Positions 33,440 through 35,310 of a stretch of DNA of 64,000 nt are shown here, piece after piece. The stretch lies in NCBI RefSeq assembly GCF_024502345.1, contig NZ_JALDNN010000001.1, one strand, 5' to 3'. A program made the translations under genes and the position numbers. This stretch comes from Escherichia coli. Lineage in GTDB: Bacteria > Pseudomonadota > Gammaproteobacteria > Enterobacterales > Enterobacteriaceae. Positions within the stretch are counted from its first letter, which is position 1, and each line of letters opens with the position of its first letter. Below the pieces are notes generated by a model. The model searched no databases. It was not told where the DNA came from and saw only the letters and a list, made by a program, of their open reading frames with translations.

Positions 33440-33500
33440 TTGGTATTGCAATGAATGAATAATAGCAATGCGTATTAATCCAAGCAATAGCAAAACGTGT
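33440..33500. promoter_or_regulatory. Putative operator/promoter region upstream of prophage repressor (OR-like)
   Basis: Palindrome attgcaat plus repeated aatagcaa motifs; tataaa -10-like hexamer 10 nt before the repressor ATG. Confidence 0.4.
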
Positions 33501-33537
33501 TTTGACCATCAATACGCAAGCGTATAAATTAAAACTT

Positions 33538-34230
33538 ATGAAAAAAGAAACTCTTGCTGATCGCTTAAACCTAGCGATGGAACAATCTGGAATGTCTCAA
33601 GGCGCTCTTGCAAAGGCGTCTGGCGTAGCTCAACCCACAATCTGGAGACTGACAAGCGGCAACGCTCGCGGCTCAACAAAAATTGTTGAAATAGCTAATG
33701 CATTGGGTGTTCGAACAGAATGGCTCTCATCAGGCATAGGCCCGATGAGAAATGACGGTCAACAATCAGGGAAGCCTGCTGTCAGCCATTCAAAATACTT
33801 CAAGATTGACGTTCTTGATATAGAAGTGAGTGCCGGGCCGGGAGTCATCAACCGTGAGTTTGTAGAAGTTCTACGCTCGGTTGAGTACTCGTTTGACGAT
33901 GCTCGTCACATGTTCGATGGTAGGAAGGCAGAAAATATCCGCATCATTAACGTACGCGGTGACAGCATGTCAGGAACGATCGAACCAGGTGATCTGCTGT
34001 TCGTTGATATCACGGTTAAATCTTTCGACGGTGATGGTATCTATGCGTTTCTGTATGACGACACCGCCCATGTAAAGCGCCTGCAAATGATGAAGGATAA
34101 GCTACTGGTTATCTCTGATAACAAGAGCTACTCACCGTGGGACCCGATCGAGAAAGACGAGATGAACCGGGTATTCATATTCGGTAAGGTTATTGGGAGC
34201 ATGCCGCAGACGTACAGAAAACACGGATAA
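33538..34230 (+). CDS. Phage CI/LexA-like repressor (N-terminal HTH, C-terminal S24 peptidase)
   Basis: MKKETLADRLNLAMEQSGMSQGALAKASGVAQPTIWRL... and ...RGDSMSGTIEPGDLLFVD...AHVKRL (Ser/Lys dyad); ORF track starts at TTG 33502. Confidence 0.85.
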   Translation: MKKETLADRLNLAMEQSGMSQGALAKASGVAQPTIWRLTSGNARGSTKIVEIANALGVRTEWLSSGIGPMRNDGQQSGKPAVSHSKYFKIDVLDIEVSAGPGVINREFVEVLRSVEYSFDDARHMFDGRKAENIRIINVRGDSMSGTIEPGDLLFVDITVKSFDGDGIYAFLYDDTAHVKRLQMMKDKLLVISDNKSYSPWDPIEKDEMNRVFIFGKVIGSMPQTYRKHG

Positions 34231-34312
34231 TCAGCCGCGTGTTGATGAGGCTTTTGGGTAATACGCTGAAGAAAATACCTTATAAAAAATAACATTACGG
34301 GAAAGGCAAAAA

Positions 34313-34576
34313 ATGAGTAATAAAACACTTGTTAAAAAATCAAATAACTGTGTCGATGCATACGCCGACGCGTTTGGCTACTCTTCGTTTGGTGACGGCT
34401 CTCAGCGCCTAGGTTCAATTTCTTTTTTTCATAATGTAACTGAATGGCCTGTTGATGAAAGTGACGATGTTGAGAACATAAAGTACAACATTGCAACCAT
34501 TAGAATGCCCGAAGAATTGATGCTTAAATTGGCTGACTTCATTCGCGACCAGCATGACAAAGCTAAAACAAACTAA
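34313..34576 (+). CDS. Hypothetical small protein co-oriented downstream of repressor
   Basis: 87-aa ORF with SD gaaagg 6 nt upstream; no recognisable domain. Confidence 0.5.
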   Translation: MSNKTLVKKSNNCVDAYADAFGYSSFGDGSQRLGSISFFHNVTEWPVDESDDVENIKYNIATIRMPEELMLKLADFIRDQHDKAKTN

Positions 34577-34753
34577 TCGTAATTAATTATGAAACACGAT
34601 TATTACGAAGCTCCAAACCTAAATGATAAAATTGCAAAGGCGGCAAAATCATTTTGTTTGCACTCCAGTGCGTCTTCCCAGCTAGCAGGTATATCTGGAA
34701 AAAGATGGGACATGCTACAATCAAGTGGTAGCAGTGGGTCTGGGAGTGATAAC

Positions 34754-35032
34754 ATGCCTGAAAAAGTTGCAAAACTGGAGTCCGATGTTGCTCATATCAA
34801 ACGAGACGTTGATGAACTTAAAACAGACGTTAAAGCTATCGACAAAAATATGATAACTATTCTTGCACGTCTGGACTCTATAAAAGAATCCTTAACAAAC
34901 AAGCCATCAAGTGATGCTGTCGATAGAAAGATTTCAGACGCAAAGCTTGCGGTATTGCTTGGTGTTCCAGCAATCATCGCTGCAGGAACAGGACTTTATA
35001 AGCTATCAATGTACTTTTTCTTTAGTGCTTAA
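34754..35032 (+). CDS. Hypothetical coiled-coil protein with C-terminal transmembrane anchor (alternative start 34589)
   Basis: SD gggag 7 nt upstream of ATG 34754; heptad-rich KLESDVAHIKRDVDELKTDVKAIDKNM then hydrophobic LAVLLGVPAIIAAGTGLYKL. Confidence 0.5.
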   Translation: MPEKVAKLESDVAHIKRDVDELKTDVKAIDKNMITILARLDSIKESLTNKPSSDAVDRKISDAKLAVLLGVPAIIAAGTGLYKLSMYFFFSA

Positions 35033-35107
35033 GAAAATGCTCGCACCCTTGCATTAGGTAAAGCGATTTTTCATTCCCCATTACCCTCGCTCTTAACCAA
35101 TCATCTA

Positions 35108-35136
35108 AACCCGGCCACCGTGCCGGGTTTTCTTTT
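35108..35136 (+). terminator. Rho-independent terminator after repressor operon
   Basis: acccggccaccgtgccgggtt hairpin followed by ttcttttg. Confidence 0.65.
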
Positions 35137-35259
35137 GCCCTCCCCTCATCACACACCGTTCAAAAAACCACCACGACCTCACTTCAGTTATCGCTATGCG
35201 ATGCAAGTCACAAAATTAATTCTTTTTGCTATCAAACATTTAATATCAAAACACATCAA

Positions 35260-35310
35260 CTAATAGCAATAAGTATTGATATCACCAATAGCAATAGCTA
35301 TTATCACCAT
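35260..35310. promoter_or_regulatory. Putative second operator cluster (OL-like)
   Basis: aatagcaat repeated twice, 10-bp palindrome aatagctatt, two atcacc half-site-like motifs. Confidence 0.35.

Follow-up and report, generated by a model that had tools for sequence, protein, structure and literature searches.

Probable right and left operator sets of an ST104/BTP1-type lambdoid immunity region in a heavily deleted argU prophage of Escherichia coli

A 64,000-nucleotide stretch of an Escherichia coli contig (NZ_JALDNN010000001.1; the whole stretch analysed is hereafter the window) carries a phage repressor operon flanked on both sides by short repeated and palindromic motifs, which raises two questions: whether these motifs are the operators of that repressor, and where the divergent cro gene of such a locus has gone. 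The first-pass annotation had likened the two clusters to the OR and OL sets that flank the cI-type repressor operon of lambda, a proposal that the comparative evidence supports. The repeats are most likely sites at which a lambda-like prophage repressor binds, shutting both early phage promoters, and we regard it as highly probable that one cluster is the right and the other the left operator set of a lambdoid immunity region whose specificity is of the ST104/BTP1 type. The prophage, which lies at argU, is defective and heavily deleted; as read from its sequence, the absence of cro is secondary, everything from cro to the tail-fibre genes having been deleted.

The 230-aa repressor cI (33538..34230, plus strand) joins a 434-like helix-turn-helix (HTH) N-terminal domain, with the third helix QPTIWRL, to an S24 self-cleaving C-terminal domain whose catalytic features can be read from the sequence (Ala99-Gly100, Ser143, Lys180). 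It matches Pfam HTH_3 (28.3 bits against a cutoff of 23) and Peptidase_S24 and, in the PDB, 434 repressor chains (E 2e-5 to 1e-4 over residues 6-67) as well as UmuD; it is 86% identical to the cI of BTP1/ST104 and 40% to that of HK022. RefSeq places its start at the same ATG (33538); some phage annotations start instead from a TTG at 33502, a choice we reject since conservation of the protein sets in at the ATG and that TTG sits within the PRM -35 element. Two accessory (moron) genes follow on the same strand: the first (34313..34576, 87 aa, phrog_4231, an unknown-function family) has no Pfam or PADLOC match and occupies a slot that is filled by different genes in related phages; the second (34589..35032, 147 aa, phrog_3556) is predicted to form a coiled coil with a hydrophobic C-terminus and shows a weak match to the hemolysin-annotated phrog_1193 and only marginal Pfam and PADLOC matches. 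Across this cargo PADLOC returned only marginal PbeC matches, and the PHROGs carry no informative function. In BTP1, the cargo gene bstA follows cI in the same operon, for which a single start site has been mapped and which is highly expressed in lysogens (PMC7067206). The operon ends here in an intrinsic terminator (35107..35138, plus strand; a 9-bp stem with 6 G-C pairs, then a T run), correctly placed before the second cluster by the first-pass annotation; the same hairpin is found in ST104 and a Klebsiella phage, and homology to other phages restarts there. Beyond it lie the OL cluster and PL, and the first gene 3′ of PL, with no N gene in between, encodes a KilR-type cell-division inhibitor (35582..35788, plus strand; phrog_294 Kil, Pfam KilR, RefSeq cell division inhibitor).

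All the short motifs listed earlier are present: ATTGCAAT at 33445 and AATAGCAA at 33461 and 33486 on the repressor's upstream side, and AATAGCAAT at 35262 and 35287, AATAGCTATT at 35293 and ATCACC at 35281 and 35303 beyond the terminator. While the clusters they mark are real, the functional unit is not an 8- or 9-mer; rather, the actual repeat is a 16-bp imperfect palindrome, AATAsnnA·TnnsTATT (dyad AATA-N8-TATT), with three copies between cI and the cro stub and two past the terminator. The proposed separate palindrome AATAGCTATT turns out to be merely the right half of OL1, and ATTGCAAT and the two ATCACC motifs, which vary freely in related phages and are unconserved in any other lineage, were discarded as operator parts and represent promoter-proximal or spacer sequence. 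We scored sites with a weight matrix trained solely on those of Salmonella, Klebsiella and Yersinia phages; at a threshold of at least 14 bits it finds seven matches in the window against 0.4 expected, with the caveat that some training sites equal the window's own OR2 and OR3. Six of the seven fall in the two clusters (33432, 33461, 33486, 33511, 35262 and 35287). The seventh is a lone site at 20940, in the cusS-nfrB intergenic region.

On the right, OR1 (33461..33476, AATAGCAATGCGTATT) has the top score of the window (22.4 bits) and is followed at 25 bp by OR2 (33486..33501, AATAGCAAAACGTGTT, 15.4 bits) and, at a further 25 bp, by OR3 (33511..33526, AATACGCAAGCGTATA, 17.7 bits), which has the core palindrome ATACGC-AA-GCGTAT, lacks AATAGCAA and was overlooked in the first reading. 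On the left, OL2 (35262..35277, AATAGCAATAAGTATT, 20.5 bits) and OL1 (35287..35302, AATAGCAATAGCTATT, 22.1 bits) are again 25 bp apart, so that the spacing of adjacent sites within either set is 25 bp throughout; since OL2 and OL1 are 19 bp apart in the Klebsiella and Yersinia phages, this spacing rule is not universal. The half-sites fall into two classes, AATAGCAA and AATACGCA, OR3 consisting of two AATACGCA, and on a tentative and doubtful reading this division could encode the cI-versus-Cro preference of the immunity type.

Two weaker sites are possible but uncertain members of these sets. The first, a potential fourth operator on the OR side (33432..33447, AATTCCTATTGGTATT, 16.1 bits), lies in the cro leader at about +5 to +20 of PR; its score in other phages falls from 14.6 bits (Klebsiella) through 11.1 (Yersinia) to less than 10 (Salmonella). 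This site shares sequence with the Shine-Dalgarno of cro (GGAAT), and that overlap alone could explain its partial conservation. The second, a candidate OL3 (35218..35233, minus strand, GATAGCAAAAAGAATT, 10.5 bits), lies in a block, AAATTCWTTTTGCTATCAA, that is kept in the E. coli, Salmonella and Klebsiella phages; in ST104 the block can be read on the minus strand as a promoter (TTGATA-17-TTATAA) serving a small gene, one that is missing from the window.

The five firm sites are set into three predicted promoters. PR (33459..33487, minus strand) combines a -35 element TTGCTT (33487 to 33482), a 17-bp spacer and a -10 element TATTAT (33464 to 33459), with a predicted start near 33452 and a 25-nt leader to the cro ATG (33427). 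Its -35 matches the consensus at only three of six positions, which is why it is absent from the promoter-scan list and was read from the sequence; its -10 and the TTGC of its -35 are kept in all compared lineages. PL (35276..35304, plus strand; TTGATA, 17-bp spacer, TATTAT) is the region's best promoter match (10 of 12 positions) and is likewise kept in relatives. OR1 and OL1 each share 4 bp with the TATTAT -10 of their promoter, the overlap GCTATTAT being common to PR and PL, and OR2 (by its left end) and OL2 each share 2 bp with the -35. The PL leader, 270 nt long and without an N gene, was also considered as a source of an HK022 put-like antiterminator RNA; this idea was dropped, as the leader has no Rfam match, folds no more stably than shuffled sequence (z = -0.4) and has no inverted element in common with an intact prophage's PR operon.

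The third promoter, PRM (33502..33530, plus strand), was found by the promoter scan as TTGACC, a 17-bp spacer and TAAATT (33525-33530), followed by AAAACTT and the cI ATG; OR2 adjoins its -35 at the right end, and the final 2 bp of OR3 are the initial 2 bp of its -10. Its geometry is kept in four lineages and the promoter is invariant in the E. coli population. A near-leaderless cI transcript had been proposed earlier from the hexamer TATAAA, which is indeed present (33523-33528, separated from the ATG by 9 nt); the comparative evidence favours the short leader, but replaces this hexamer as the -10 by the overlapping TAAATT, a better fit with the conserved A2 and T6 at 17 bp from TTGACC. The segment between the -10 and the ATG is constant in length (7 nt) and variable in sequence across the four lineages, there is no Shine-Dalgarno sequence before the ATG, and the Yersinia phage has TAGATT-CACGAGT-ATG, in which TAGATT is the -10 of lambda PRM. 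That a -10 stands 7 nt before the ATG, at a distance kept while the sequence varies, points to a cI mRNA from PRM that would be fully leaderless.

The earlier reading also found no convincing cro-like gene opposite the repressor, and no intact one exists; however, its 22-codon minus-strand frame opens with the first 13 codons (MTNQTIQLAISIT; 33389..33427, minus strand) of a 75-aa Cro/YdaS-family protein, fused to the remnant of a tail-fibre-assembly gene. This stub is identical to the Cro start in phage PhiR30_1 and in E. coli prophages where the 75-aa protein is intact. With only 13 codons left here and an intact Cro in relatives of the same immunity, the window holds a truncated member of the lambdoid immunity regions. 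Homology to intact immunity regions ends at 33384, the match to the tfaQ/recombinase genes extends to 33388, and the two overlap in a CTACC microhomology (33384..33388) that marks the deletion junction. The tail-fibre-assembly gene survives as a 3′ remnant (33192..33383, minus strand; a 55-codon frame matching Pfam Caudo_TAP over profile positions 76-130 of 131) that is 99.7% identical to E. coli tfaQ regions and covered by an Rfam IS009 match; despite its position downstream of PR, it is not one of that promoter's target genes. The same cro'::'tfa junction was found by protein look-up in three other assemblies, and a search of species-representative genomes did not recover it.

A rival reading is that the operators are real but relics, in a region that decays neutrally now that cI is no longer made or needed. 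The prophage has indeed lost cro as well as its genes for replication and lysis and its structural genes, together with the greater part of int and a portion of gam, and the sister copies show some change: one differs from the window over 4 kb by a single G-to-T substitution, which falls in OR1, and two others carry a 38-bp deletion in cargo gene 1. Against this, intact E. coli prophages match the entire segment from 33384 to 35500 (cro stub, OR, cI, cargo, OL and PL) with 100% identity, three of four remnant copies that we examined have an intact cI (the gene call in the fourth is a shorter 161-aa S24 product), and the kil gene downstream of PL is intact, from which, given KilR/FtsZ biology, loss of cI should be harmful. 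We consider neutral decay improbable. The converse, that the remnant is a retained module in which, with cro and all lytic genes gone, cI, OR, OL, PL and kilR form a self-maintaining, SOS-releasable division-inhibition and homoimmunity cassette, is a tentative suggestion that we hold as doubtful, though somewhat less so than decay; were it true, loss of cI would be selected against, since it would unleash kil.

The preferred reading, of functional operator sets, must also be weighed against the notion that AT-rich promoter DNA and common intergenic ancestry produced the repeats as a by-product, with no repressor reading the dyad. Both clusters do overlap promoters, and the 8-mer count by itself is not significant (five copies in the window against 2.7 expected, five being reached in 14 of 100 shuffles), although four of the five copies sit in two 40-bp clusters. 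The longer unit behaves differently: the 16-mer AATAGCAATNNGTATT, with up to three mismatches, has 20 matches in the window against 5.8 expected, a count that none of 100 shuffles reaches, and 11 of them lie within 33392-33501 or 35218-35302. A dyad recurring five times at fixed spacing, and the excess of weight-matrix matches over random sequences, likewise speak against mere composition.

Comparison among phages bears on the same point. In the phages of E. coli, Salmonella (ST104, SE1, BTP1), Klebsiella and Yersinia, matches of at least 14 bits occur solely at OR and OL, and these phages, which differ in virion type, cargo genes and replication genes, have in common a recognition helix QPT(I/V)WR (QPTIWRL in cI, QPTVWRW in Cro). 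The Yersinia cI keeps this N-terminal domain and has an unrelated C-terminal domain; HK022 cI has a homologous C-terminal domain and a different HTH, and scans of the HK022 and lambda immunity regions gave no match to the motif. The motif thus co-occurs with the helix, which supports, indirectly, its being the sequence that the helix would read. OR1 is invariant in its outer positions across the four lineages; OR2 recurs unchanged in the phages of Salmonella and Klebsiella, and its Yersinia version is AATAGCGAAACGGATT; OR3 is identical in ST104, SE1 and the Klebsiella phage. The left sites of other lineages (AATAGCAAAACGTATT in ST104 for OL2; AATACTCAATGCTATT, AATACTCATTGCTATT and AATACGCATTGCTATA for OL1) differ in sequence and orientation yet keep AATA-N8-TATT, which counts against the by-product notion. 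Overall, 37 of 48 operator columns are invariant across lineages as against 26 of 62 other intergenic columns (p = 2e-4), a conservation that partly reflects shared descent, the OR and PL-proximal OL regions being homologous and alignable between lineages.

Population variation tells the same story. Our IMG/VR scan for this immunity type yielded 528 relatives. Among 29 haplotypes with an identical N-terminal domain, polymorphism spares the outer operator arms (2 of 30 columns, against 19 of 62 non-operator columns; p = 0.015) and gathers in centres and spacers: OR1 varies only at its centre positions and OR3 not at all. All 71 loci whose sequence extends far enough past cI contain an OL pair, which variable cargo separates from cI and which is found 0.6-1.9 kb downstream of it; no further match of at least 14 bits occurs anywhere in these loci; OL2 is unchanged in 53 and mostly altered at centre positions in the remainder. 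Taken with the dyad, this leaves the by-product notion very unlikely. Equally slim is the chance that the sites serve Cro or another regulator (a cII/YdaT-like protein, IHF or DnaA) instead of cI: intact relatives encode a Cro whose recognition helix is almost the same, and sequence alone cannot tell Cro binding from that of cI, but in lambdoid switches cI and Cro as a rule use the same operators, the sites are still found in remnants with cI that lack cro and ydaT, the replication iterons of an intact prophage are a different repeat (TTTACCTGATTCGGGTAAA), and to our knowledge the motif is unlike the cII (TTGC-N6-TTGC), IHF or DnaA consensus.

Placed beside known systems, the geometry matches the lambda OR/OL switch almost base for base: cI and cro diverge from a region with three operators, and more operators stand at PL, past a cargo operon and its terminator; at the lytic promoters O1 overlaps the -10 and O2 the -35; OR2 adjoins the PRM -35 and OR3 shares 2 bp with the PRM -10; the cI ATG has no Shine-Dalgarno sequence and follows the -10 by 6 nt in lambda and by 7 nt here; and the repressor has an S24 self-cleaving domain. 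It differs in that the lambda operators are of the 17-bp TATCACCGC type at 24/23-bp spacing, rather than 16-bp AATAsnnATnnsTATT at 25/25 bp, and in that the locus described here has a 434-like instead of a lambda-like N-terminal domain, no more than two firm OL sites, neither an N gene nor a nut site following PL, and a deleted cro. With phage 434 it shares the homologous N-terminal domain, the Gln that opens helix 3, and operators with conserved outer arms and a variable centre; however, helix 3 is QQSIEQL in 434, its operators are 14-bp ACAA-N6-TTGT whereas the AATA arms here stand 2 bp further apart, and the C-terminal domain here is of the HK022 type. HK022 cI itself is clearly homologous in that self-cleavage and oligomerisation domain, whereas its N-terminal HTH is unrelated in sequence. 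BTP1 and ST104 have identical helices 2 and 3, the same OR1-3 layout, the cargo slot and the terminator; they differ in possessing an N homologue and nut sites, both missing from the window's lineage, and BTP1 carries bstA in place of two genes of no assigned function. Finally, the Rac racR-kilR and Qin dicA-dicB pairs offer precedents for a defective prophage that keeps a repressor silencing a division-inhibitor gene, as we propose here, although in this case the repressor is a cleavable cI with a full OR/OL architecture. In the intact relatives, Cro and the protein at the cII position fall in Pfam YdaS and YdaT.

We accordingly picture the switch by analogy with lambda. Dimers of the 230-aa cI would recognise AATAsnnA·TnnsTATT, as would Cro in intact relatives; cI at OR1 and OR2 would occlude PR, and at OL1 and OL2 it would occlude PL, which here would drive the KilR-type division inhibitor. 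From OR2, cI would stimulate its own leaderless transcription, and from OR3, over the PRM -10, it would limit its own level, with repression being released in the SOS response through RecA-stimulated self-cleavage at Ala99-Gly100. With cro through the tail-fibre genes deleted, the switch in the window is one-sided: cI would autoregulate, express the two cargo genes, confer homoimmunity and silence PL-kil.

The region thus appears to be an ordinary lambdoid immunity switch that adds no new regulatory principle, and its apparent anomaly, a repressor without cro, is explained as a deletion artefact. It belongs to a type for which we found no operator description in the literature, for either ST104 or BTP1, and nothing relevant on the motif; the 2008 genome paper on epsilon34 treats the ST104-type repressor as a specificity type of its own, unstudied (PMC2629481). 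What the comparison provides is a likely operator consensus and promoter layout, defined by comparison only, for an immunity type found widely among enterobacterial prophages, with phage ST104 and the Salmonella ST313 prophage BTP1 among its members. Such a consensus would allow annotation of the switch, reporter design and the testing of operator variants against phenotypes, for which BTP1, with an identical repressor and three operator changes, is a candidate.

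Reading both clusters together uncovers a 16-bp imperfect palindrome, AATA-N8-TATT, as the unit of the candidate repressor operators on either side of the cI operon: three sites on the right, OR1 (AATAGCAATGCGTATT, 33461-33476), OR2 (AATAGCAAAACGTGTT, 33486-33501) and OR3 (AATACGCAAGCGTATA, 33511-33526), and two on the left, OL2 (AATAGCAATAAGTATT, 35262-35277) and OL1 (AATAGCAATAGCTATT, 35287-35302), with a site-to-site distance of exactly 25 bp in both clusters alike. The first-pass annotation had proposed two operator sets here from shorter motifs, every one of which is present where it was placed; the sets stand as clusters of the 16-bp sites, but ATTGCAAT and ATCACC, being unconserved, do not stand as operators. 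The 8-mer AATAGCAA alone is not over-represented in the window (5 copies against 2.7 expected), and four of the five are left halves of the longer unit. The 16-mer pattern, with up to three mismatches, has 20 matches against 5.8 expected, a count reached in none of 100 shuffles. Likewise, a weight matrix trained only on sites of Salmonella, Klebsiella and Yersinia phages, some of which are the same as OR2 and OR3 of the window, recovers 7 matches of at least 14 bits (0.4 expected), six of them within the two clusters. The seventh, a lone AATAGTCATACCTATT (20940-20955; 19.5 bits) in the cusS-nfrB intergenic region, is probably a chance match. The half-sites form two classes, AATAGCAA and AATAC(G/T)nA: most operators have one of each, and OR3 combines two of the second class. 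Purely as speculation, we suggest that these classes contribute to differing preferences of cI and Cro. Two further matches, a 16-bit one in the cro leader overlapping the cro ribosome site (33432-33447) and a 10-bit one in a block kept in three lineages (35218-35233), are uncertain as operators on sequence grounds; in phage ST104 the block corresponding to the latter looks like a promoter on the minus strand serving a gene missing from the window.

The clusters are interlocked with predicted promoters. A scan of 33300-35700 returned exactly two sigma-70-like promoters, both on the plus strand: PRM (33502-33530; TTGACC-17-TAAATT), leading into cI, and PL (35276-35304; TTGATA-17-TATTAT), pointing away from the operon toward kil. 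A minus-strand PR (33487-33459; TTGCTT-17-TATTAT), directed toward the cro start codon at 33427, was read from the sequence, being unlisted by the scan because its -35 is weak (3/6). At both PR and PL, site 1 (OR1 or OL1) lies over the spacer and reaches 4 bp into the TATTAT -10, and site 2 (OR2 or OL2) shares 2 bp with the -35 of that promoter. The PRM -35 begins where OR2 ends, and OR3 occupies the PRM spacer, its final two bases being the first two of the -10. The annotated operators and sequence of lambda display the same relations, including the 2-bp OR3/-10 overlap, with 6 nt between the -10 and the cI ATG as against 7 nt in the window. The TATAAA hexamer previously taken for the -10 of cI gives way to the better TAAATT that overlaps it; the aligned Yersinia sequence, TAGATT, is identical to the lambda PRM -10. 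Of the other short motifs considered as operators, ATTGCAAT (33445-33452) coincides with the predicted start of PR; it is polymorphic among E. coli copies, and every other lineage has unrelated sequence in its place. The ATCACC motifs belong to the OL2-OL1 spacer and to the region where PL starts, and other lineages lack them. The palindrome AATAGCTATT makes up the right half of OL1.

In four lineages alike, PRM is followed by exactly 7 nt and then the ATG (-35, 17 bp, -10, 7 nt), the segment itself varying freely (AAAACTT, GAATATT, TGAAATT, CACGAGT), and none of the four, the window included, has a Shine-Dalgarno sequence before this ATG. Protein conservation begins at the same codon, which is also the RefSeq start. 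Transcription from the A of the ATG predicts just such a fixed length with free sequence, and we infer that the cI mRNA would be leaderless. In phage BTP1, dRNA-seq maps a single start site for the homologous cI-bstA operon, which lysogens express at a high level (PMC7067206).

Comparison across phage lineages supports the operator assignment at the sequence level. Across OR and the beginning of cI, the window shares 77-79% nucleotide identity with the P22-like Salmonella phages ST104, SE1, ST160 and BTP1, 76-77% with Klebsiella phages and 70% with a Yersinia myovirus; all those compared have QPTIWRL as cI helix 3 and QPTVWRW as the Cro helix. In 5-14 kb scanned per locus, matches of at least 14 bits are confined to two places, the cro-cI interval and the stretch immediately upstream of the leftward early genes. 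The OL sites of these relatives differ from those of the window in sequence and even orientation (e.g., AATACTCAATGCTATT, AATACGTATTGCTATG and TATAGCTAGTGCTATT), and the AATA and TATT arms are retained in every one. The link between motif and HTH is sharpened by two domain swaps that occur in nature: the Yersinia cI joins the common N-terminal domain to an unrelated C-terminal part, and the motif is present; the HK022 cI (40% identical overall) has a homologous C-terminal domain with a different HTH, and there is no motif match. The immunity region of lambda likewise has no match to the weight matrix. When the cro-cI intergenic region is aligned across five lineages, invariant columns make up 37 of 48 within the operators and 26 of 62 elsewhere (p = 2e-4); among the invariant columns outside the operators are the PRM -35, the PRM -10 and the cro ribosome site. 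An IMG/VR scan gave 528 relatives, of which 80 loci, all with an identical N-terminal domain, were kept; across their 29 OR haplotypes, variable columns number 2/30 in outer operator positions, 3/18 in operator centres and 19/62 outside operators. Every one of the 71 loci that extend far enough downstream has an OL pair 0.6-1.9 kb after cI, usually with 25-bp spacing, and these loci contain no further match of at least 14 bits. This conservation is partly inheritance, since both OR and the 100 bp nearest PL are themselves homologous between the lineages. In L005, an intact E. coli prophage of the same immunity type, the DNA coding for GVAQPT(V/I)W in cro (5952-5975) and cI (6239-6262; window 33622-33645) is 83% identical over 24 nt, a likeness suggesting that the two recognition helices share an ancestor or were subject to gene conversion.

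The architecture is textbook lambdoid, and the repressor type is already known from ST104 and BTP1. In the epsilon34 genome paper of 2008, the ST104 repressor appears as a separate specificity type that had not been studied (PMC2629481). Within an incomplete coverage of the literature, the operators are undescribed in the BTP1 work on the cI-bstA operon, and a full-text search for the motif gave nothing relevant. BTP1 (3542-3607, 5669-5684) and ST104 (2504-2569, 4861-4876) encode identical cI proteins, yet three operator positions differ: BTP1 has T in place of G at the OR1 centre and at OR3 position 6, and a change at position 5 of OL2, a conserved position, turns AATAGCAA into AATAACAA. As BTP1 is reported to induce spontaneously at a very high rate, these changes are candidate causes of that behavior.

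The operators lie in a stripped lambdoid prophage in an IS-rich enterobacterial chromosome segment containing folD, an IS1 copy and fimZ. Leftward from the adjoining tRNA-Arg(UCU) (36672-36748) follow an integrase C-terminal fragment, a DUF1382 gene, a truncated gam, a KilR-type gene, the OL cluster, a terminator, two small genes without assigned function, the 230-aa repressor (HTH_3 and Peptidase_S24), the OR cluster, the 3' end of a tail-fibre-assembly gene on the opposite strand, the C-terminal HTH of a Pin-type invertase and IS1. Internal deletions also mark 35864-36656: Gam is cut after about residue 73 and joined to unrelated codons, bet, exo and xis are missing, and the integrase is reduced to its last ~92 codons beside the tRNA. 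Of two identical IS1 copies (32282-32979 and 37721-38418), one abuts the invertase remnant at the prophage left edge and the other sits between fimZ and folD, where sister contigs retain fimbrial (sfm) genes. The O gene of L005 contains four to five 19-bp replication iterons (TTTACCTGATTCGGGTAAA; 4696-4809), a different repeat from the operators and absent from the window.

By megablast against phage genomes, intact lambda-like coliphages, including PhiR30_1, PhiR68_2, PhiR70_1, 4A7 and Perceval, match 33384-34230 at 96-98% identity in their Cro-cI region, which has a 75-aa Cro starting MTNQTIQLAISITGSQKRLADLCGVAQPTVWRW; intact prophages in E. coli genomes are 100% identical to the window over 33384-35500. 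The window retains the first 13 codons of cro and diverges thereafter, and leftward from 33388 it is 99.7% identical to E. coli tfaQ and recombinase regions. Both homologies share CTACC (33384-33388), which therefore marks a microhomology deletion junction. The first-pass annotation saw no convincing cro-like gene: an intact cro is indeed absent, but its 22-codon frame is the cro stub, and its second small minus-strand frame is no cro but the 55-codon C-terminus of the tail-fibre-assembly protein (Pfam Caudo_TAP). The identical junction recurs in one NCBI assembly and two gut-metagenome contigs; the cro deletion is later than the right-hand deletions, because another contig has those and keeps cro and ydaT. 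A cro-deleted sister copy, L014 (GCA_001484475.1, contig LLYL01000017), differs from the window by one base in 4063 bp, at its position 528 (window 33465), changing OR1 position 5 from G to T. The gut-metagenome copies L012 and L013 have a 38-bp deletion within cargo gene 1 (window 34439-34476), with cI called at full length (230 aa) in L013 and as a shorter 161-aa S24 product in L012. A 178-bit match to the candidate E. coli sRNA IS009 of Rfam (33226-33426, minus strand) is prophage sequence and no RNA gene here, because this DNA is the tail-fibre-assembly pseudogene and cro stub.

In its N-terminal domain cI shows homology to the 434 repressor; in the alignment the Gln opening helix 3 is kept, and Gln29 and Gln33 of 434 are replaced by Pro and Arg. 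In published 434 complexes each half-site is read by helix 3 at its outer four or five bp, and a similar reading would fit the strongly conserved AATA arms and variable centre. This E. coli lineage has neither an N gene nor nut-like boxA/boxB between PL and kil (35305-35581), whereas N homologues are present in ST104, BTP1 and the Yersinia phage; the 270-nt leader shows no unusual structure and matches no Rfam family. In the proposed switch, cooperative cI dimers at O1 and O2 would repress PR and PL, cI at OR2 would stimulate PRM, cI at OR3 would limit its own synthesis, and RecA-dependent cleavage at Ala99-Gly100 would release repression. Because only PL, kilR and a gam fragment are left in the window for such release, the remaining roles of the repressor would be limited to its autoregulation, expression of the two cargo genes (phrog_4231 and phrog_3556), homoimmunity and the silencing of kil.
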